Below are positions 4,715 to 59,236 of a stretch of 64,000 nucleotides of DNA, one piece after another. How positions within the stretch are numbered: the stretch's first letter is position 1; each line of letters opens with the position of its first letter. A model generated the notes under the pieces. That model made no database searches. It saw only the letters and a list, made by a program, of their open reading frames with translations, and was not told where the DNA came from. Origin of the DNA: an uncultured Spirochaetia bacterium (GTDB lineage Bacteria > Spirochaetota > Brachyspiria > Brachyspirales > Brachyspiraceae). The translations under genes were made by a program, and so were the position numbers. The stretch covers positions 4,623 through 68,622 of the forward strand of contig CAMRBQ010000007.1 in NCBI GenBank assembly GCA_947040495.1, given 5' to 3'.

Positions 4715-5941
4715 ATGGGGCTATATATGAGCGAAAATATCAAATGGAAAGGCAATACTATGCCAAAAGATAATAGTAGTTATTCATGGGAAGACCATCT
4801 TTCTTTAGAAGAAGTGAATAAAGCAAAAGAATTTCATGCAAGTTTTGAAGAATATAAAGAAACACCACTTGTCAATTTACAATCTCTAGCAGATAAAATT
4901 GGGATAGGTAGCTTATATCTTAAAGATGAATCATATCGCTTTGGACTGAATGCCTTTAAGGTATTGGGTGGTTCATTTGCTATGGGGAAATATATGGCAA
5001 AGTGTTTAAACAAAGATATATCTGATTTACCATATTCAAAAATAATATCACCTGAAATTAAAAAACAATTAGGTGACATAGTGTTTTATACAGCTACAGA
5101 TGGTAATCATGGTCGTGGTGTCGCATGGACTGCTAATAGACTTAATCAAAAATCTGTTGTATATATGCCAAAAGGCTCTTCAGAATATCGATTAAAAAAC
5201 ATACAAAAAGAAGGAGCAACAGCCTCTATTACAGATATGAATTATGATGATGCTGTAAGACTTGCTGCAAAAGATGCTCAAGAAAATAATGGGCTTATAG
5301 TACAAGATACAGCTTGGGAAGGCTATGAAGAGATACCACTTTGGATTATGCAAGGCTATGGTACTATGGCTTTGGAGGCGATTAAACAATTAAATGATTA
5401 TAATGTCGATAGTCCAACGCATGTATTTGTTCAGGCGGGTGTTGGTTCTCTTGCAGGTGGAGTACAAGGGGTACTACATTCATTCTATAAAGATAAATGC
5501 CCTATAACTACAATTGTCGAATCAGATTTGGCTGACTGTCTTTATAAATCTGCGTTGGCAAATGATGGTAAGCCTAGATTTGTTGGCGGCGATATGCAAA
5601 CTATCATGGCAGGTCTTGCATGCGGCGAGCCAAATACAATTAGCTGGGAAGTATTAAAAAAATATTCAAAGATGTTTGTATCATGTCCTGATTGGGTTGC
5701 TGCTGAGGGAATGCGTATACTTGCAAAGCCTACTCACGATGATAAAAAAGTTGTATCGGGTGAATCTGGTGCTGTAACTACAGGCTTAATTGTAGAGATT
5801 ATGATAAATGATGAATATAAAGCACTTAGAGAGGAATTAAAATTAGATAAAAACTCTAAAGTTTTGGTATTTAGTACCGAAGGTGATACTGACCCAGATA
5901 TGTACAAAAAAATTGTAGATGATGGGTTTTGTAAAAAATAG
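4715..5941 (+). CDS. dpaL: Diaminopropionate ammonia-lyase (PLP-dependent; YgeX/DpaL family)
   Basis: LKDESYRFGLNAFKVLGG carries the PLP lysine motif; also TATDGNHGRGVAW. Length 408 aa. An alternative start is the ATG at 4727. Confidence 0.8.
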   Translation: MGLYMSENIKWKGNTMPKDNSSYSWEDHLSLEEVNKAKEFHASFEEYKETPLVNLQSLADKIGIGSLYLKDESYRFGLNAFKVLGGSFAMGKYMAKCLNKDISDLPYSKIISPEIKKQLGDIVFYTATDGNHGRGVAWTANRLNQKSVVYMPKGSSEYRLKNIQKEGATASITDMNYDDAVRLAAKDAQENNGLIVQDTAWEGYEEIPLWIMQGYGTMALEAIKQLNDYNVDSPTHVFVQAGVGSLAGGVQGVLHSFYKDKCPITTIVESDLADCLYKSALANDGKPRFVGGDMQTIMAGLACGEPNTISWEVLKKYSKMFVSCPDWVAAEGMRILAKPTHDDKKVVSGESGAVTTGLIVEIMINDEYKALREELKLDKNSKVLVFSTEGDTDPDMYKKIVDDGFCKK

Positions 5942-23882: not shown

Positions 23883-25751
23883 ATGGAACATCTTTTGAAA
23901 ACAAATAATAATAATTATGATGTAATAGTTGTAGGGGCAGGGCATGCGGGTATTGAAGCTGCTCTTGCTAGTGCAAAGCTTGCTTGTAATACACTTTTAA
24001 TAACTATCAATCTTGATAATATGGGCCAGCTATCTTGCAATCCATCTATTGGTGGCATTGCTAAAGGGCAAATCGTAAAAGAGATAGATGCCCTTGGTGG
24101 AATCATGGGACATGTAATCGACAATACCATGATGCAATTTCGTATGCTTAATAAAAGTAAAGGTAAAGCCGTATGGGCCCCACGTTCGCAGGCGGATAAA
24201 TATGCATATAAAGACTATGTAACAAATGTTTTATATGCTCAAAAAAATCTATCTATTATGCAAGATATAGTTATATCTTTATGTGTAGAAAATAAAAAAA
24301 TTGTTGGTGTAAAGACTGAGCGTAATAATATATATACAGCAAAATCTGTTGTTCTTACTACGGGTACATTTTTGAATGGGCTTATTCATATTGGGCAATA
24401 TCAAAAAGCCGCTGGTCGTATTGGTGAATTGCCTGCAGTTGGGCTGTCTGACAATCTTCTATCACTAGGTTTTTCTGTCGGTAGATTAAAAACCGGCACT
24501 CCTGCTAGAATAGACAAAGATAGTATAGACTATAATAAAACTGAAATACAACATGGCGATGATAAAATATATCCATTTTCATATGAAACTAATAGCATAG
24601 ATATAGAACAAACTCCATGTTGGTCTATATATACAAATATAAATATACATAAAATTATACAAGATAATATTCATCTTTCTCCATTATATTCTGGTCGTAT
24701 TACAGGTGTTGGTCCAAGATATTGCCCGAGTATTGAAGATAAGGTTGTTCGCTTTGCTGATAAGGATAGGCATCAATTGTTTTTGGAATTAGAATCGCTA
24801 CGTAGCAATGAAGTTTATATAAATGGATTTTCATCTAGCTTGCCCGAGCATGTTCAAAATCAAATGATTCATAGCCTAGTAGGTCTTGAGGAAGTAAAAA
24901 TATTAAAGCCTGCCTATGCTATAGAATATGACTATGTCAATCCAATAGATTTATATCCAACACTCGAAACAAAGATTATAGAAGGGCTCTTTCATGCTGG
25001 GCAAATCAATGGTACTAGTGGATATGAAGAGGCAGCAGCTCAAGGTTTAATAGCAGGCATTAATGCGGCATTAAAAATACAAGAGCGAGATAGTTTTATA
25101 TTAAAGCGTAGTGATGCATATATCGGTGTTCTTATCGATGACCTTACAACTAAGGGAACAACCGAGCCATATAGAATGTTTACATCTCAAGCGGAATATA
25201 GAATGATATTAAGGCAAGATAATGCTGATGAAAGGCTTACAAAATTATCATTTGATATTGGGCTTGCTAGCGAACATAAATATTTAAAAGTCGTAGAAAA
25301 AGTAAAACAGAGAGATAAACTTATTGCTTATCTTGGCGGATATTATCTATCAAAAGAAGAGCTACTTAATATTGGGCTTGAAAAAGAAGCAAACGAATAT
25401 AAATCTATTAATTTAGCAAATATAGTGAAGCGTCCACAATGCGGTATCGATTATATAAAAAATATTGGTGAAGTATCAAACTATAATGAAAATGTCATAG
25501 AGAGTGCTGAGATAAATATAAAATATGAGGGATATATTAAGCGGGCGCAAAATGATATTGAAAACATGAAAAAATATGAGAACATGAAAATCCCAATAGA
25601 TTTTGATTATGACCTTGTGCCAAGTATAAAAACAGAGGCAAAAGAAAAATTAAAACTGCATAGACCGCTTTCTATTTCTCAAGCAACTAGAATATCTGGA
25701 ATTGACCCATCCGTAATACAGGCTCTAATGATTCTACTGCGTAGGCTTTAG
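23883..25751 (+). CDS. mnmG: tRNA uridine 5-carboxymethylaminomethyl modification enzyme
   Basis: YDVIVVGAGHAGIEAA FAD motif and GQINGTSGYEEAAAQG; 622 aa. Confidence 0.95.
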   Translation: MEHLLKTNNNNYDVIVVGAGHAGIEAALASAKLACNTLLITINLDNMGQLSCNPSIGGIAKGQIVKEIDALGGIMGHVIDNTMMQFRMLNKSKGKAVWAPRSQADKYAYKDYVTNVLYAQKNLSIMQDIVISLCVENKKIVGVKTERNNIYTAKSVVLTTGTFLNGLIHIGQYQKAAGRIGELPAVGLSDNLLSLGFSVGRLKTGTPARIDKDSIDYNKTEIQHGDDKIYPFSYETNSIDIEQTPCWSIYTNINIHKIIQDNIHLSPLYSGRITGVGPRYCPSIEDKVVRFADKDRHQLFLELESLRSNEVYINGFSSSLPEHVQNQMIHSLVGLEEVKILKPAYAIEYDYVNPIDLYPTLETKIIEGLFHAGQINGTSGYEEAAAQGLIAGINAALKIQERDSFILKRSDAYIGVLIDDLTTKGTTEPYRMFTSQAEYRMILRQDNADERLTKLSFDIGLASEHKYLKVVEKVKQRDKLIAYLGGYYLSKEELLNIGLEKEANEYKSINLANIVKRPQCGIDYIKNIGEVSNYNENVIESAEINIKYEGYIKRAQNDIENMKKYENMKIPIDFDYDLVPSIKTEAKEKLKLHRPLSISQATRISGIDPSVIQALMILLRRL

Positions 25752-25772
25752 TTGCATATATAAAATGCATTA
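25734..25772 (+). repeat. Left arm of the inverted repeat bracketing RadC-like cassette 1 (overlaps the last 18 nt of mnmG)
   Basis: ctactgcgtaggctttagttgcatatataaaatgcatta matches the reverse complement of 26692-26730 at 32 of 39 positions by hand, with the first 15 nt identical. Confidence 0.75.
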
Positions 25773-25847
25773 TTGCATTGAAATGTGTTACTAGGCAAAG
25801 TGCTGCGGGGTATGCCTTGTTTTAGTTGTACATTATAAAGCTGTCTA

Positions 25848-26561
25848 TCATTTCAATTTGTCTATTTCTTTTTTTGGTATATTTGTAATTTTTATTATTT
25901 CTTCTATATTATAATTCATAGATAACATTTCTTTTGCTATTTCAATATTTCTTTTTTCGATACCAACTTTTTCACCTTCTTTTTTTCCATCAAGTTTATA
26001 ATCTTGCTTCTCTTTATCCAAAATATCTTTGACATCATCAACAGCCTGATAGGTTATATCTTGTTCGAAAAAATCTATATATTTTTCTACAAAAAAACTA
26101 TAGTAAATTGATTCTTCACTTTCTAAAGATGAGCGTGAAATTATTATATGGTCAATTAAATTTAGCCCCAAATATTTCGACCTATGATAAAATTTATTCG
26201 TAAAGTCTATATCATATTGTGAAGGCTCAGGATTTTTTCTACTTGTATGATTATGGGCAATAACAATATTTTTTGATTTATGTTTTACGGCTGTATCAAA
26301 AATATCTATGATAGGAAGCTTCACCATATTTTCAGTGCCCAAAGCCACAAGATAAATACAAACAACATATCCATCGCTGTCCATGCCCATTATCCAAAAA
26401 TGCTCTTTACTATATAAATCTTTATTCTCAATTTTTAACACATGGATAAACGCTCTATAATAATCTTCTACGCTGCTTATTTTTATAGATTTTTTTTTAA
26501 TATCTTTGACAGTTCTAATCAACATTTTTTTATTATCTTCAATTTTTTTCTTGCTTGCCAT
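25848..26561 (-). CDS. RadC-like JAB/MPN-domain protein, paralog 1 (C-terminal HTH-like tail)
   Basis: EHFW...AHNHTSRKNPEPSQYD fits the RadC-type E / HxH / SxxD signature. About two thirds identical to the 31078..31791 product by eye. Confidence 0.75.
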   Translation of the reverse strand: MASKKKIEDNKKMLIRTVKDIKKKSIKISSVEDYYRAFIHVLKIENKDLYSKEHFWIMGMDSDGYVVCIYLVALGTENMVKLPIIDIFDTAVKHKSKNIVIAHNHTSRKNPEPSQYDIDFTNKFYHRSKYLGLNLIDHIIISRSSLESEESIYYSFFVEKYIDFFEQDITYQAVDDVKDILDKEKQDYKLDGKKEGEKVGIEKRNIEIAKEMLSMNYNIEEIIKITNIPKKEIDKLK

Positions 26562-26691
26562 GAGATATACCTTTGTAATTATTTATTAGTTTTTTTATGA
26601 TTTTTTATTATATACAATATTTTATTATTTGCAGTACTTTTCCTAGTAGCACATACAAAATCAATATAATAAAATATATATTTAAATGTTA

Positions 26692-26730
26692 GAATGCAAT
26701 TATAATGTGCAACTTAAGCCTACGCAGTAG
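26692..26730 (-). repeat. Right arm of the inverted repeat of cassette 1
   Basis: The reverse complement reads ctactgcgtaggcttaagttgcacattataattgcattc. Confidence 0.75.
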
Positions 26731-26736
26731 TGTATT

Positions 26737-26758
26737 AAAATGTGCAACTAGGAAAACC
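26737..26758 (-). repeat. Additional copy of the repeat core next to cassette 1
   Basis: The reverse complement reads ggttttcctagttgcacattttaat. Further partial cores lie at 25782-25795 (-), 25822-25838 (+) and 26642-26659 (+). Confidence 0.6.
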
Positions 26759-26843
26759 AGCATTGTGGTTGCAGTATTATATATTATGGTATAGACTGAT
26801 ATGCGTTTAGTCAAATATTGAAATTACTCATTGGAGATTCGTC

Positions 26844-28199
26844 ATGGCAATAAAAAATGTTGGAAAAAGAAATCTTAATAAAGATTATTCTTTTATGTTA
26901 TCTATAGATAAGAATGATATAGATTTAACTGTAGATTATATAAAAAATAAGGTATCAGAAAATAATAGATTTATAATTTTAGAAATAAGAGATTTAGATA
27001 AAACTGAATATGCAGATGACGATTATAAAAAAGCAATATATGTTAAACTTCAATATCTTCCATTTATGAATGAAGATGGGGATGAACAGAGTGATAATGA
27101 TAATGAAGAAGCAAAGATATTAGAATTAAAGGTCGCATTAATGCCAACATCTAAAGTTAGTGATTTGGTTATGAATGCTTATATGAAAACGGATGTTACA
27201 CAAGATGATTGTGCTGCAATTTTTAAAAATGAACTTGCCTTAAATATTTCGACAATATATGAAAATTTTCCAATACAAGATTATCAAATACATTTGAAAT
27301 TGTTAAATCTATTGAGCCCAAGCTCATTACTTTTTATCGATATATCAGGCTTTTTGGTTAGAAGCGGTACATGGCTTAGATATACAGCAAACTTTGAATT
27401 GCCTCCATCATTAGATTATCTTTATGCCGTACATAGTATATTTGATGATGAGAGTGAAGTTCATGAATATTGGTTTCATACACATGGACTTAATAGACTT
27501 GGCTTGCCTGAGGTTGAAATCATGGGGCTTAATGATGATGAACTTGCATACCCTTGTTCTACTTTATTGACTACCGTGGCAAAGTATATTATAGAGAATG
27601 GAGCACCAAAGGAAAAAGACCCAGCTTTTGTAGAGGTTATGTATGAAACTCCTACTATACTTAAACCATTTTATGAAGCTAAGCAATATTTCACTGAAAA
27701 TACACTTGGTTTCACAAGGACTGATGGGGATATCGACCATCCAGTAGATTCTTTGATAGTTTTGGCAATGAAAGACGGTAATGTTGTGCCATTTAATGAA
27801 TATAAAGATAAGTTTATGGATAATCCAATATTTTCATTAAGCAATTTTGAAACGACACTTATGAGAGAGGCAGCTAGAGAAACTATCGAATATTTTATAA
27901 ATATTTTTGATGGGCATAAAGACAATGAAGATTTTGGTTTTTTGGTTAAACTTGGTTATGCTGAAAGGGATAAAGAAGAAGGCGAGACAGAGCATCTTTG
28001 GTTTGATGTGCATAATTTTGACAAAGAGACCATGCTTTTTGATGCAACACTTGTTAATAAGCCATATTATGATATAGGCATTACAGAAGGGCAGAGAGGT
28101 TCTTATGAATTGGCTAGACTTACAGATTGGATTGTCCATATAGAAGATTATAGTTATAATTCAGCAAATATTTATATGCTTTTTAAGACTGAAGACTAA
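26844..28199 (+). CDS. Hypothetical protein with DUF2314 (YegJ-like) C-terminal domain
   Basis: C-terminal EHLWFDVHNFDKETMLFDATLVNKPYYDIGITEGQRGSYELARLTDWIV fits the DUF2314 pattern as I recall it. The N-terminal ~350 aa is unassigned. Confidence 0.5.
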   Translation: MAIKNVGKRNLNKDYSFMLSIDKNDIDLTVDYIKNKVSENNRFIILEIRDLDKTEYADDDYKKAIYVKLQYLPFMNEDGDEQSDNDNEEAKILELKVALMPTSKVSDLVMNAYMKTDVTQDDCAAIFKNELALNISTIYENFPIQDYQIHLKLLNLLSPSSLLFIDISGFLVRSGTWLRYTANFELPPSLDYLYAVHSIFDDESEVHEYWFHTHGLNRLGLPEVEIMGLNDDELAYPCSTLLTTVAKYIIENGAPKEKDPAFVEVMYETPTILKPFYEAKQYFTENTLGFTRTDGDIDHPVDSLIVLAMKDGNVVPFNEYKDKFMDNPIFSLSNFETTLMREAARETIEYFINIFDGHKDNEDFGFLVKLGYAERDKEEGETEHLWFDVHNFDKETMLFDATLVNKPYYDIGITEGQRGSYELARLTDWIVHIEDYSYNSANIYMLFKTED

Positions 28200-30901: not shown

Positions 30902-30910
30902 ATTGCTACT

Positions 30911-30997
30911 GGAGAGATGTCCGAGTCTGGTTTAAGGAGCACGATTGGAAGTCGTGTGTGCGGCAACGTACCGTGGGTTCGAATCCCACTTTCTCCG
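30911..30997 (+). tRNA. tRNA-Ser, anticodon GGA (class II, long variable arm)
   Basis: Acceptor GGAGAGA/TTTCTCC, anticodon stem CACGA/TCGTG with loop TTGGAAG, a 17-nt variable arm and T arm GTGGG-TTCGAAT-CCCAC. Confidence 0.85.
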
Positions 30998-31006
30998 ATT
31001 CTTTCC

Positions 31007-31055
31007 CTAAGTTGCACATTGTAATATTCATATTAACATACAAATATATTTGACT
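31007..31055 (+). repeat. Conserved non-coding flank (repeat core plus 21-nt block) downstream of RadC-like paralog 2
   Basis: ctaagttgcacattgtaatattcatattaacatacaaatatatttgact differs from 53701-53749 at about 6 of 50 aligned columns (hand alignment). Confidence 0.75.
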
Positions 31056-31077
31056 ACATCATGCTTGCAATACCAAA

Positions 31078-31791
31078 TTATATTTTTAAATTTTTAATTT
31101 CTTTTTCAGTTAACCCAGTTGCTTTAATAATAGTTTCTATATCTAAATTAAGATTTAATAATTTTTTTGCTATAGATATTTTCTCTTCATGTTTCCCTTC
31201 AACTTTGCCATCTTTTTTTCCGTCAAGTTTATAATCTTGTTTTTCTTTATCCAAAATATCTTTAACATCATCTACTAATTTATAACTTAAATCCTGCTTA
31301 AAAAAATCCATTAATCCTGTTACCAAAAAACTATAATAAATTGATTCTCTACTTTCTAAAGATAAAGCTGAAAGTATTATATGGTCGAGTACATTAATAT
31401 TTAAATATTGCGAAACATGAGAAAGCTTGTTTGTGAAATCAATATCAAATTGTGAAGGCTCAGGGTTTTTTCTCGTTGTATGATTATGAGCCACTACTAT
31501 ATTTGTTGCTTTCGATTGAACTGCTATGCCAAAAACATCGGTCATGGGAACTTTCACCATATTCTCGCTACCCAAAGCTACTAAATATAGACAAACAGAA
31601 TAGCTGTCATTATCAATACCCATTATCCAAAAATGTTCTTTACTATATAAAGATTTAGGTTCTCTTTTGAAAAAATCAAGAAAAATTTTATAGTAATCTT
31701 CTACGGTATTAATTTTACTAGCTTTTAATTTGAAACCCTTAATGGTTTGAACTTCCATTTTTTTGACTTCAGTTTTTTTCTTGCTCACCAT
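31078..31791 (-). CDS. RadC-like JAB/MPN-domain protein, paralog 2
   Basis: EHFW...AHNHTTRKNPEPSQFD signature. The C-terminal tail IAKKLLNLNLDIETIIKATGLTEKEIKNLK is HTH-like. Confidence 0.75.
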   Translation of the reverse strand: MVSKKKTEVKKMEVQTIKGFKLKASKINTVEDYYKIFLDFFKREPKSLYSKEHFWIMGIDNDSYSVCLYLVALGSENMVKVPMTDVFGIAVQSKATNIVVAHNHTTRKNPEPSQFDIDFTNKLSHVSQYLNINVLDHIILSALSLESRESIYYSFLVTGLMDFFKQDLSYKLVDDVKDILDKEKQDYKLDGKKDGKVEGKHEEKISIAKKLLNLNLDIETIIKATGLTEKEIKNLKI

Positions 31792-31860
31792 AAAATATAC
31801 CTTTATAATTATTTATTAGTTTTTATTATTATATATAATAAAATATATATTTAAATGCTA

Positions 31861-31886
31861 GAATGCAATTATAATGTGCAACTAGG
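31861..31886 (-). repeat. Inverted copy of the repeat core upstream of RadC-like paralog 2
   Basis: The reverse complement reads cctagttgcacattataattgcattc. It is nearly identical to the inner part of 26692-26730. Confidence 0.75.
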
Positions 31887-31975
31887 AAAAAACTTGATTT
31901 TTAATCGGTTAGTTGTATTATCATATTTATATTAGTATTTACTATAAAAAAATAATATTTAAGGCGGTTGTTATT

Positions 31976-52236: not shown

Positions 52237-53688
52237 ATGAAAGAAGACTCTCAATCTAGGGTTAAAGTGAGAAAAAGGGTATTGCATGTATCTAAAAAAT
52301 CTGTTAACTCAAAAACACCAATAAAGTCTAATAGAGAAGAAAAAGCTATTTTTAAAAATGAAAATAGTTTGGAAGAAAATACTTATAATGGAATAACAAC
52401 CACAGAGGCAATAGATAAAGATACTATTAATGATATACTTCATGTTAGCCAACTTAGTCAATTAACTTTGGATGGACTTATTTCTATTGGTGTTAAATAT
52501 GGTATTGCCTATGAAGGCAGCATCAAAAGACAAGACCTTATGCATGCTATTTTACGTAGCCAGATTTCAAATGGTGGTAAAATTATAGCTGATGGTACAT
52601 TAGAAATATTACCTGATGGATATGGATTTTTGCGTTCAAAGATGTCGAACTATCTACCTGGTTCAGATGATATATATATATCGCCATCACAGATAAGGCT
52701 TTTTGCTCTCAGAACAGGCGACCTTGTATCTGGTGAAGTACGCCCACCAAAAGATAATGAACGATTTTTTGCTCTACTTAGAATAGATACTGTAAATGAA
52801 GATACTGCTGATAATTCATTTAAACGACCGGTATTTGAAAGCCTCACACCAATATTTCCAAATGAAAGAATGGATTTAGAATTCTCTCCTTCAAAAATTG
52901 CAACACGTGTTATAAATCTTGTTTCACCTATTGGTAAAGGTCAGCGTGGTTTAATTGTTGCCCCGCCAAAAGCTGGAAAGACTATGATACTTCAAGAGAT
53001 AGCCAATGCTATAAGCTCAAACTATTCCGATGTGAAATTATTTATTTTACTTATAGATGAACGTCCTGAAGAAGTTACAGATATGGCTCGTCATGTTCGT
53101 GCTGAAGTTATTGGCAGTACATTCGATGAACCGCCTGAGAAGCATGTACAGGTGTCTGAGATGGTGCTTGAAAAGGCAAAACGACTTGTAGAAAAAGGCC
53201 ATGATGTTGTTATCATGCTCGATTCTATAACAAAACTCGCACGTGCTTATAACCTTGTTGTGCCTGCTAGTGGAAAAATATTGACAGGTGGTATCGATTC
53301 AAATGCACTTCATAAACCAAAGAGATTTTTTGGTGCTGCTCGAAATATTGAAGAGGGTGGCTCTCTAACTATTATTGCGACAGCCCTTGTCGATACAGGT
53401 AGTAGAATGGATGAGTATATATACGAGGAATTCAAGGGTACTGGTAATATGGAATTACACCTTGAAAGAAAACTTGCAAATAGAAGACTTTTCCCTGCTA
53501 TCAATATAAATAATTCTTCGACAAGAAAAGAAGAAATGTTGCTTACTGAAGAAGAAATGAATAAGATGTGGGCATTTAGAAAATTCATACAGAATCAAAT
53601 GGACGAAAGCGAAGTTATGGAACTTGTTATTGATAAAATGAATTCTACTAAAGATAATATGAGTTTCTTAAAGCTTATGAATGGCTAG
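52237..53688 (+). CDS. rho: Transcription termination factor Rho with ~65-aa N-terminal extension
   Basis: GFLRS..., Walker [18 protein letters not shown] and LARAYN blocks; 483 aa. Confidence 0.96.
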
Positions 53689-53749
53689 GTACGGCGTACG
53701 CTTAAGTAGCACATTATAATATTGGTATAACATACAAATATATTTGACT
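53689..53749 (+). repeat. Conserved non-coding flank (repeat core plus 21-nt block) downstream of RadC-like paralog 3, starting 1 nt after the rho stop
   Basis: gtacggcgtacgcttaagtagcacattataatatt... The first 27 nt resemble the cassette 1 repeat arms (21 of 27 vs the right arm, 19 of 27 vs the left). 53701-53749 parallels 31007-31055. Confidence 0.7.
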
Positions 53750-53780
53750 TCCTCTGTCTACTAAATTATAAAGATGTCTA

Positions 53781-54461
53781 TCATTTTAATTTGTTTATTT
53801 CTTTTTGACTTAGACCTGTATGTTTAGAAATTATATTAATATCAATGTTATCAGCTAACATACTTTTTACTATTTCAATATTTCTTTTTTTAATCATATC
53901 ATAAGCATAATCTTTTTTTTCTTCTTCCAACATCGGTTTTAATTCTTCATAAGGCGTATAAGAAATATCTTCATGTATACTTTTCATAACATGCATTTCT
54001 TTATAGCTATAATAAATTGCTGTTTCGCTTGTTAGGCTTTTTGTAGAAATAATAATATGGTCGAGCAATGTTAGCCCCACAATACTTGCCATATGATAAA
54101 CTTTATTTGTGAATAGAACATCTTCATCTGATGGAATAATCTCACTTACATCTGGATGATTATGAGCGAGTATAACCCTTTGGCAACTATGATTAATAGC
54201 AGTTTTAAATAAATCATGTGCTGTTAAATTTACAAAATTGCCACCACCCAAAGCGACTATATATGCACAAACTGTGTAGCCTTTATCATTCACACCGATA
54301 AGCCAAGCATGTTCTTTTTGCTCTAATTCTTTATCTTCACTTTTAAGTAGATTTACAAAGATACGATAATAGTTTTCTATCTTTTCTATTCTAACTCTTT
54401 CTTTTTTTATTTTTTTGATAGTATTAATTATCATCATATCTTCTACTTTTTTCTTTACCAT
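53781..54461 (-). CDS. RadC-like JAB/MPN-domain protein, paralog 3 (divergent)
   Basis: EHAW...AHNHPDVSEIIPSDED signature. The C-terminal tail IVKSMLADNIDINIISKHTGLSQKEINKLK resembles that of paralogs 1 and 2. Confidence 0.7.
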   Translation of the reverse strand: MVKKKVEDMMIINTIKKIKKERVRIEKIENYYRIFVNLLKSEDKELEQKEHAWLIGVNDKGYTVCAYIVALGGGNFVNLTAHDLFKTAINHSCQRVILAHNHPDVSEIIPSDEDVLFTNKVYHMASIVGLTLLDHIIISTKSLTSETAIYYSYKEMHVMKSIHEDISYTPYEELKPMLEEEKKDYAYDMIKKRNIEIVKSMLADNIDINIISKHTGLSQKEINKLK

Positions 54462-54645
54462 AATGTTACCTTTTATGTTAGTAATATTTTCTTGTTGTTA
54501 TAATTTTTATTATATATGATTTTTTATTCTTTTCTACTATTGTGGTGTTCTGTATAAAACGATATGTATATTTATACTAGTTTACATATTAGTTTATTTG
54601 TTTATAATACAGACGATAAATTAATATATGGTGTAATAAATACTT

Positions 54646-58191: not shown

Positions 58192-59236
58192 TTATATTTT
58201 TATAATAGACTTTACAATGTTTGATTTGTCTTTTAAGCTTTCATCCATAGCATTTTGGATATCATTAAAATCAAATATATTTGTTACAATACTTTTTATA
58301 TTTATTGAACCATGCTGAACAGCACTTATGCATAATGGATATATATGTCTATATCTAAAGACAGTTTTAAATGTTAGCTCTTTATTCAAAGCGATACTTA
58401 TATTTATATCAGCATTTCCACTTTCAGGATATCCAACGAACACGATAGTAGAACCCATTTTGGCAAAATTGATTGATTGGTTCATCGCTATTTGCATTCC
58501 CGATGTTTCTATTGTAAGGTCAGAGCCTTTTCCATCAGTTAATTCTAATGTTCTTTCTACGACATTTTCTTTGGATGCATCAATTACTCCAGTAGCACCA
58601 ATCTCTAATGCTTTATTAAGTCTGTTTTTTACGACATCTATGACATAAACTTTTGAGACACCACAAGATTTTAAAGATAGCATAGAACATAAACCTATAC
58701 ATCCTGCCCCTGTAATAAATGCTGTTTGTCCTATATGGGATCCCCTTGTCTAGCAGCATGCATTCCAACAGATAAAGGTTCAATTAAAGCACCTTCAAGT
58801 GTAGTTAGTTGTTCAGGAAGTTTGAAAGATAAATACTCAGGATGTGCCACATATTCTTGAAAGACACCATCAATAGGGGGGGGGCAAAAAATATTACATC
58901 TGGACATAAGTTATATTTACCATTTCTACAAAAATAGCAGTTCCCACAAGTTTTACCGGGTTCAAGTGCTATTTTGTCACCAACTTTTAAACTTTTGACA
59001 TCTTTACCAATTTCGACAACAATACCTGCTGCTTCATGACCTAAAACAAAAGGTGGTTTCACTATATAATCGCCTATAGCACCAGTTTTATAATAATGTA
59101 AATCTGAACCACATATACCAACATATTCAATTTTTACTAAGACTTCGTCATCACAAGGTTTTGGTATATCCTTTTCTATTATCTTCATTTGTTCAATATC
59201 TGTCATAACAGCAACTTTCATTTTAGAATTTTTCAT
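58192..59236 (-). pseudogene. Zinc-dependent sorbitol/L-iditol dehydrogenase-like gene, disrupted by at least two frameshifts
   Basis: The N-terminal ORF (58805..59236: GICGSDLHY, GHEAAG) and the C-terminal ORF (58192..58683) lie in different frames. A third frame in between reads PIDGVFQEYVAHPEYLSFKLPEQLTTLEGALIEPLSVGMHAARQG. Confidence 0.8.

Follow-up and report, generated by a model that had tools for sequence, protein, structure and literature searches.

Mobile insertion cassettes, such as MIC231 of Bacillus cereus and the qnrD 'mic' of Proteeae, have ends that match a resident insertion sequence (IS), are moved by the transposase of that IS and produce target duplications. The Correia elements of Neisseria, which are miniature inverted-repeat transposable elements, are abundant, carry no gene and insert at TA with duplication. 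In this paper, a RadC-like gene bracketed by inverted repeats at the 3' end of mnmG is compared with these systems. The stretch of DNA analysed (64 kb, referred to as the window) comes from the 116-kb ENA metagenome scaffold ERZ28618971 scaffold_14. Because the MnmG of the window is about 68% identical to Brachyspira MnmG, the host is, judged from this similarity, an uncultured Brachyspira-like spirochaete. Segment 25734-26730 of the window, designated cassette 1, is probably a member of a small and lineage-specific family of insertion cassettes, each repeat-bounded and with a single gene, that comes closest to the mobile insertion cassettes.

The Rpn (YhgA-like) nucleases provide a further point of reference. 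They occur as multiple paralogues, move horizontally and have an N-terminal PD-(D/E)XK domain (PMC5350276; PMC10400941), and neither paper, in its account of rpn genes, mentions inverted repeats flanking them. In the E. coli Rpn nucleases, tetrapeptide repeats precede RpnS, a C-terminal tail that dimerises and acts as an antitoxin (PMC10400941). A search for literature linking RadC with inverted repeats, Brachyspira or transposase returned nothing relevant.

Inverted ends of the cassette at mnmG

Two arms of 51 nt, 25734-25784 and 26680-26730, were found by a repeat search; they are 80% complementary and are separated by 895 nt. An earlier note on this DNA had described a 39-bp inverted repeat at this place, and its ungapped count of 32 matches over the 39-mer and the identity of the outer 15 nt of both arms (CTACTGCGTAGGCTT) were reproduced, with the repeat extending to 51 nt. 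Local alignment of arm against arm gives a score of 55, compared with 18.0 +/- 2.5 and a maximum of 27 in 300 shuffles. Since mononucleotide shuffles of 25500-27000 reach 34/39, a bare count of 32/39 is unexceptional in such AT-rich DNA and weight is taken off it; what makes the repeat significant is its perfect G+C-containing 15-mer, the gapped extension that brings it to 51 nt and the recurrence of these ends at other loci. Translation confirmed that mnmG ends within the left arm, which contains its last five codons and its stop (LLRRL*), while the reverse complement of the right arm reads LLRRLKLHIIIAF*. The left arm had been described as the 3' end of mnmG. It does overlap that end, but the 15-mer itself is an element end, recurring at the copy between purA and argS.

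The ends are built from a 17-nt core, TAGTTGCACATTATAAT, with one of two outer extensions, type A (CTACTGCGTAGGCTT, with the variant GTACGGCGTACGCTT at rho) or type B (TTTTCC). The four additional partial core copies listed previously are all present, at 25777-25793 (minus strand), 25823-25839 (plus), 26644-26660 (plus) and 26734-26750 (minus). It can be seen from their positions that the structure is nested: each terminus is a unit of about 70-95 nt with an outer and an inner core copy, to which the copies L3 and R3 are added. The features of cassette 1 and its left neighbour are as follows.

23883-25751, plus strand: mnmG, 622 aa, an open reading frame (ORF) with Pfam GIDA domains; its last 18 nt (LLRRL and TAG) lie within the left arm.
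25734-25784, plus strand: left arm L1, an A-type end consisting of CTACTGCGTAGGCTT and then core TAGTTGCATAT; shared with both ends of the purA/argS copy.
25742-25807, plus strand: segment of about 65 nt, comprising the remainder of L1 and the inner copy L2 (25777-25806, minus strand).
25803-25839, plus strand: relic of the older mnmG 3' end with core copy L3 (TAGTTGTACATTATAAA).
25848-26561, minus strand: RadC-like JAB gene, 237 aa, with an Rpn-type C-terminal helical tail.
26562-26630, minus strand: ribosome-binding site and promoter-proximal region, conserved among cassettes (...AAAAACTAATAAATAATTAYAAAGGTATAT...ATG), from alignment and promoter-like sites.
26631-26730, minus strand: upstream terminal unit, comprising R1 (26631-26660, plus strand) and R2, the right arm (26680-26730).
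26734-26758, minus strand: outermost copy R3, a B-type end (TTTTCC and TAGTTGCACAT).

The small units fold no better than shuffles (z from -1.75 to +0.1), and a structured RNA or a strong terminator was rejected on this ground. With Rfam, two tRNAs alone were found at the gathering threshold, and across the cassette nothing relevant appeared at E <= 1. A weak terminator-like hairpin at 25805-25820 (plus strand; GCGGGGTATGCCTTGT and then TTTAGTTG) is formed by the displaced older mnmG-end relic. Downstream of cassette 1, a protein of unknown function with DUF4026_N, DUF4026_C and DUF2314 domains is encoded at 26844-28199 (plus strand), and the sequence upstream of its gene (26759-26843) is the same in strains with and without the RadC-like gene.

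Five cassettes at unrelated loci

Five copies of the RadC-like cassette were found at unrelated housekeeping loci. Three are in the window, all on the minus strand, with genes encoding 237, 237 and 226 aa (PF04002, E about 1e-22). Apart from cassette 1, these are the following.

30999-31890, minus strand: cassette 2, with a RadC-like gene at 31078-31791 (minus strand) and inverted ends at 31002-31049 and 31845-31890.
53689-54640, minus strand: cassette 3, with a RadC-like gene at 53781-54461 (minus strand), left end GTACGGCGTACGCTTAAGTAGCACATTATAAT and a decayed right end.

Cassette 2 begins directly after the tRNA-Ser (30910-30998) of a tRNA-Arg/tRNA-Ser pair, and its inverted ends score 42, compared with 20.0 +/- 3.4 in shuffles. 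Cassette 4 is located between purA and argS in the same metagenome (contig L002; score 41, compared with 17.9 +/- 3.2), and cassette 5 is located upstream of purD in another strain (contig L100). Terminal inverted repeats are present at both ends of cassettes 1, 2 and 4. Only one recognisable or decayed end is left in cassettes 3 and 5, and the inverted repeat of cassette 3 is not significant. The cassettes are about 0.8-1 kb in size, the promoter region lies within the upstream end, and homology among the copies ends at the repeat boundaries.

Cassette ends are mostly inverted copies of the core, which holds repeated TGCA half-sites. With up to 3 mismatches, the core has 10 matches in 83 kb of DNA from the host, the amount covered by the motif counts and by the negative results on recombinases and IS, and 0.75 matches are expected from shuffled windows. 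Eight of the 10 matches fall within 175 nt of the end of a RadC ORF, so the motif is tied to RadC-like genes, an association on which the earlier note had made its proposal depend. The CTACTGCGTAGGCTT 15-mer recurs at both ends of the purA/argS copy, and its variant follows the rho stop codon. The upstream end is far more conserved than the genes, as cassettes 1 and 2 are near-identical over about 50 nt there and have a coding identity of 72%. Small units of about 65-95 nt (25734-25806 and 26631-26730 in the window, and 3128-3210 in contig L086 of a strain lacking the RadC gene) are all situated at RadC sites, and none were found elsewhere in the 83 kb. Among 79 RadC loci of other bacteria, none is flanked by an inverted repeat (z at most 3.7, median 0.12), whereas the flanking repeats here reach z values of 13.1, 6.7 and 5.0.

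Several further searches were made for relatives. A scan of genome contigs with a RadC-alignment profile found distant RadC genes only (<=39% identity), exact 25-mer scans of metagenome and viral collections gave no match, a scan of viral contigs for relatives gave 3 matches, all distant, tblastn against plasmids and phages found remote JAB domains only, and PADLOC gave no match.

Additionally, the A-type ends hold a 4-bp stem, CTAC-TGC-GTAG, both sides of which are changed at the rho copy (GTAC-GGC-GTAC). A gapped palindrome pattern was discarded as a signature, having more than 120 unrelated matches, including a recurrent 75-nt hairpin inside IS982-like elements with different ends. That hairpin, AGTTGCACAT-N55-ATGTGCAACT, was observed at L110 2938-3012 and at about 30 other gut-metagenome loci (L101, L102, L104, L105, L118, L126-L128 and others); in L110 it belongs to an IS982-like element (DDE_Tnp_1; true ends ACCCGTTGGCGGAATTAA), where it follows closely on the left end, and it shares with the cassette motif the 10-mer only. 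A 5'-TG...CA-3' terminus of the DDE type does not fit, as the cassette ends read 5'-CA...TG-3'.

Cassette ends at the stop codons of neighbouring genes

Cassette ends abut or overlap mnmG, purA, argS, rho and tRNA-Ser at their 3' termini; an element end thus stands exactly at the 3' boundary of four protein genes and one tRNA, with mnmG running into its element end in frame 1. Both arms of cassette 4 are of type A (ACTACTGCGTAGGCTTTAGTTGCACAT and its inverted copy ACTACTGAGTAGGCTTTAATTGCATAT), and each holds the TAG of one of the convergent genes purA (...ACT ACT GCG TAG) and argS (...ACT ACT GAG TAG). The ArgS tail, ...QNMWVTTE*, departs from those of relatives (...SMYVDEK, ...ERMW, ...ERMWNED) exactly at the start of the arm. 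In rho, the stop codon occupies 53686-53688 and the end of cassette 3 begins at the next base. Read inward, an A-type end contains stops in all three frames within 30 nt (TAG at nt 9-11, TAG at nt 16-18 and TAA at nt 28-30), and for this reason insertions at gene ends would be tolerated. These loci would represent a natural case in which mobile-type DNA rewrites the last codons and stops of the essential genes mnmG, purA and argS without inactivation, with rewritten gene ends that differ between strains.

Strain differences at the mnmG site

In three assemblies from other samples, MnmG is 98-99% identical and ends with ...LLRVR*, no RadC gene is present, and the DUF4026 gene begins 172 nt after mnmG. 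The cassette is missing from near-identical strains and is in that sense a discrete repeat-bounded unit, as was suggested previously. The comparison of mnmG ends in relatives, which had been named as a check, gave different termini: RRL* in the window and RVR* in the RadC-less strains.

The flanks are collinear up to window position 25741 and again from 26740 (94-95% identity, BLAST), and 998 nt of the window (25742-26739) stand where the RadC-less strains have 78 nt. These 78 nt (L086 3130-3207) match window 26714-26638 on the minus strand (88%, BLAST), the upstream terminal unit (26631-26730) being their inverted counterpart. When 25839-26699 is inverted in silico, the two forms become collinear, and their two alignment blocks then have 17 nt in common (ATGTGCAACTAGGAAAA), which form a direct repeat where the deletion is joined. 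The remaining difference is the piece of about 65 nt (25742-25807) bracketed by CTGCG on both sides (25737-25741 and 25803-25807), which is missing in the RadC-less strains and gives mnmG its present stop in comparison with L086. Next to it, the relic at 25803-25839 is homologous to the mnmG end and left core of the RadC-less strains (L086 3125-3144 and window 25819-25838, 95%, BLAST); an L3-like copy is also found after the stop codon of cassette 3. As far as can be read from these alignments, one inversion and one indel bounded by the 17-nt repeat reconcile both mnmG forms, in agreement with the repeated recombination that the earlier note had supposed at this site. The suggestion that the segment is invertible holds to the extent that an inversion is needed to reconcile the haplotypes, but there is no sign of ongoing or programmed inversion. 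The arms may have been the site of the event, but the inner pair 25821-25838 / 26700-26717 fits equally.

The mnmG of an outgroup, 78% identical, ends with ...VLRASSK* and has no motif downstream, suggesting that both tails, RRL* and RVR*, lie in element-derived sequence. The proposal that the element supplies the mnmG terminus is supported in this respect, but the site in the RadC-less strains is not cleanly empty, because it keeps the inverted 78-nt upstream unit of the cassette; it is probably a deletion derivative rather than a virgin site. As for the other copies, cassette 2 is present in other strains and cassette 3 in L095.

Contigs of other strains break inside RadC genes, as expected of dispersed repeats, and RadC cassettes are accordingly break and chimera points in metagenome assembly. 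In L096 4337-5544 (ERZ28618731 scaffold_905), the 5' two-thirds of the RadC gene and its upstream flank are identical to cassette 1, and the RadC 3' end and downstream purD are those of cassette 5 in L100; this is either a real recombinant of two cassettes or an assembly chimera. Contig L085 ends within the 78-nt unit in the Illumina adapter AGATCGGAAGAGCGTCGTGTA (5662-5682), which is adapter contamination at a repeat-induced contig end.

The RadC-like protein and its Rpn-type tail

The ORF at 25848-26561 (minus strand) matches PF04002 with E 2e-22 and the RadC structure PDB 2qlc with a sequence E of 3e-17 and a fold TM of 0.82. The metal site is intact in the cassette 1 protein (E53, H103, H105, S114, D117); among the paralogues, E53, H103, H105 and D117 are invariant and S114 is nearly so. 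The five paralogues are 41-87% identical with dN/dS of 0.18-0.56, indicating that all five are selected. The RadC JAB domain (PF04002) is the single match of the ORF in Pfam, with no match to the N-terminal HhH / UPF0758_N module even at E <= 10, and the score with the NCBIfam RadC equivalog, 68-72 bits, is below the cut-off of that model, 180.

The Rpn-type tail was recognised from NCBIfam and from precomputed Pfam annotation, in which it is labelled PF27070 HTH_Rpn_C. The match to TIGR01784 (Rpn) is limited to the last ~70 positions of the model (about 195-273 of 273), with E 1.8e-9 to 9e-6 and 26-38 bits against a cut-off of 52, and the PD-(D/E)XK / transposase_31 catalytic domain of Rpn was not found in the RadC-like proteins. 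The JAB domain occupies the position of the Rpn PD-(D/E)XK domain. In the structure model (pLDDT 77), the protein ends in a three-helix bundle (helices 199-214, 219-226 and 230-236). A variable number of GKKE/GKKD/GKVE-like tetrapeptides precedes the tail at residues ~188-205 in the three window proteins, and the C-terminal tails are mosaic between paralogues. This architecture of JAB domain and tail is shared by at least about 100 clusters at 50% identity that align end to end. The most distant full-length member, P0010 (31% identity; L098 1473-4342, GCA_021777105.1), has defence/toxin-antitoxin-like neighbours, an AAA_14/DUF4143 gene and a PIN toxin pair, and no flanking inverted repeat was found at its locus.

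The cargo protein is most likely a DNA-directed metal hydrolase that dimerises through its Rpn-like tail. It may have a role in defence or as a toxin-like protein, or may act on the ends of its own cassette. These loci link a RadC JAB domain to an Rpn C-terminal module and to a defined repeated DNA motif, offering a directly testable DNA substrate for a RadC-type protein.

Origin of the cassettes and competing explanations

According to the explanation that we consider probable, a family of insertion cassettes similar to mobile insertion cassettes, the units would have arrived by insertion as discrete repeat-bounded elements and would have been mobilised in trans by an enzyme encoded elsewhere, as mobile insertion cassettes are. 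Since an ORF interrupted by the element comes to a stop after a few codons, the only insertions in essential genes to persist would be those at the very 3' end. At mnmG, oppositely and directly oriented core copies would later have recombined, the outcome being an inversion and a single deletion or insertion flanked by the 17-nt direct repeat; such a joint is the reason for regarding the RadC-less form as a probable secondary deletion.

Several observations weigh against this explanation. Neither a transposase nor a recombinase was found in the 83 kb of host DNA, and no IS was found there either, including one with ends matching the cassettes. Within the window, the large ORFs checked across the 64 kb are all housekeeping genes, without a transposase or recombinase among them, and the earlier statement that cassette 1 itself encodes neither was confirmed. 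No target-site duplication is present at cassettes 2 or 4, and at mnmG CTGCG brackets only the piece of about 65 nt. The copies are old (dS 0.4-1.1), each under purifying selection, and in age and selection look more like resident host genes than like a selfish element that is still active. Among the strains sampled, cassettes 2 and 3 are fixed, and the only polymorphism can, on the alignments, be explained by deletion and inversion without a new insertion. Moreover, the left arm opens with 8 nt (CTACTGCG, LLR) that can be aligned to native codons of the outgroup mnmG (GTATTGCG, VLR), which makes the exact boundary of element and gene ambiguous; a reading of CTACTGCG as mere mnmG flank was rejected, as it recurs at three other ends, and its reading as purely element sequence is weakened by the outgroup codons. 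Finally, short-read metagenome assemblies underlie all of the data.

Much of this would be expected if the cassettes were not mobile, that is, if they formed an old paralogous family whose flanks are regulatory palindromes, bound by a regulator or by the protein tail, with strain differences due to homologous recombination. The upstream arm overlaps promoter-like sites, TGCA half-sites recur within the core, the copies are old, under selection and fixed in position, neither target duplications nor a transposase were found, and the 78-nt piece could be the upstream region of the gene left by a deletion. This explanation, the best surviving of the alternatives, is nevertheless unlikely. Five copies are situated between unrelated single-copy housekeeping genes with homology ending exactly at the repeats, which argues for insertion as discrete units. 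The downstream arm is not a terminator; it repeats about 35-50 nt of the upstream end in inverted and diverged form. In mnmG, purA and argS the final codons are overwritten by the arms, which, occurring three times, is unexpected for a regulatory site.

A slightly less probable alternative is an autonomous element, IS-like or of the homing type, in which the RadC-JAB/Rpn-tail protein is a nuclease or recombinase that moves or rearranges its own cassette. All full-length repeat-bounded units carry a RadC-like gene alone, a pattern of transposase genes and unlike that of variable passengers, and the promoter region inside the upstream end resembles that of many IS. To our knowledge, no biochemical activity has been reported for any RadC JAB domain, and we know of no transposase or homing enzyme with the JAB fold as its catalytic fold. 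In favour of catalysis, the metal site is intact and conserved, the JAB domain stands in place of the Rpn PD-(D/E)XK nuclease and is joined to the same C-terminal tail, the tetrapeptides before the tail vary as they do in RpnS (PMC10400941), and Iyer et al. predicted RadC JAB to be a nuclease by domain displacement (PMC3239186). Against autonomy, the identities of 41-87%, the dS values near saturation and the purifying selection among paralogues are unlike recent transposition, the Rpn tail is a dimerisation/antitoxin module and not a proven DNA-binding domain, nor are the Rpn proteins transposases of a conventional kind. Moreover, P0010, from another organism, has no flanking repeat, and there is no evidence of repeats in the more than 100 clusters that have this architecture. 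The narrower claim that the protein recognises and cuts or recombines TAGTTGCACATTATAAT-type ends, making the cassettes autonomous and JAB-fold-driven, is doubtful and a little less probable again. If it were true, the long-enigmatic RadC family would gain a concrete DNA substrate. A protein acting on its own ends would define a new class of mobile element; if it does not, the family is similar to mobile insertion cassettes and its mobilising enzyme is still to be found.

A programmed switch is improbable to a greater degree. In such a system, a recombinase encoded elsewhere would flip 25.75-26.70 kb, with the MnmG tail alternating between RRL* and RRLKLHIIIAF* and with alternating RadC orientation. 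The 51-nt inverted arms with their perfect 15-mer, the opposite orientation of the 78-nt unit in other strains and the open reading of the predicted alternative MnmG tail are all consistent with it. However, no recombinase gene was found in the window, all contigs with this RadC protein show the same neighbours, and the same ends bracket fixed cassettes at other loci. The promoter is inside the segment, so flipping would leave the gene unswitched, and the two orientations belong to separate strains that have diverged by about 5% in nucleotide sequence, not to a single population.

An assembly artefact, a chimeric mnmG-RadC join caused by repeats among RadC paralogues, is very improbable: although L096 joins the 5' part of the cassette 1 gene to the 3' end of the purD-linked copy, several contigs break inside RadC genes and one ends in adapter sequence, the right junction (DUF4026, R3, R2, R1, RadC) is identical in the independent sample L096, 4 contigs encode the exact MnmG...RRL protein and 3 contigs encode the exact RadC protein with the same neighbours, and a diverged older mnmG-end relic (25803-25839) inside the structure is beyond what an assembler would invent.

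Elsewhere in the window, a zinc-type alcohol dehydrogenase at 58192-59236 (minus strand) is split into ADH_N (58805-59236) and ADH_zinc_N (58192-58683) by a stop in ...GGGGATCCCATATAGGAC..., and is either a pseudogene or an assembly error.

Comparison with known systems

Xer dif modules and invertons are, like the cassettes, gene-sized modules between inverted sites. Unlike these modules and integrons, the cassettes have no recombinase nearby, are dispersed and have promoter-like regions of their own. Integron cassettes are promoterless ORFs with an attC site at the 3' side, and they form arrays beside intI. By eye, the core fits the 11-6-11 arm-spacer-arm pattern of a Xer/dif site poorly, and a reading of the ends as integron attC sites was rejected: no GTTRRRY (R''/R') box was seen by eye at the cassette ends, repeats are present at both ends, and the cassettes are dispersed, not arrayed.

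At the level of the protein, the JAB fold and the HxH...S..D metal site are shared with canonical RadC/YicR and with prophage RadC-like proteins (PDB 2qlc; PMC3239186). The differences are that the HhH/UPF0758 module was not found here, that an Rpn-type tail is added and that the genes form single-gene repeat-bounded cassettes. With the Rpn proteins, the cassette proteins have in common a homologous C-terminal three-helix tail after variable tetrapeptide repeats, but a RadC JAB domain takes the place of the N-terminal PD-(D/E)XK.

The small palindromic units of about 65-95 nt resemble Correia elements in having inverted ends at gene boundaries, in their promoter- and terminator-like sequences and in the altered ends of neighbouring ORFs. 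Unlike Correia elements, they are few and always stand beside a RadC cassette or a site that lost one, and they may be cassette termini.

The cassettes differ from mobile insertion cassettes in their cargo, which always comes from a single gene family, in the old age of the copies and in the overlap of their ends with the stops of essential genes; in addition, no cognate IS and no target duplications were found. Apart from these differences, both are short units with terminal inverted repeats and a passenger gene, carry no transposase and exist in several copies at unrelated sites.

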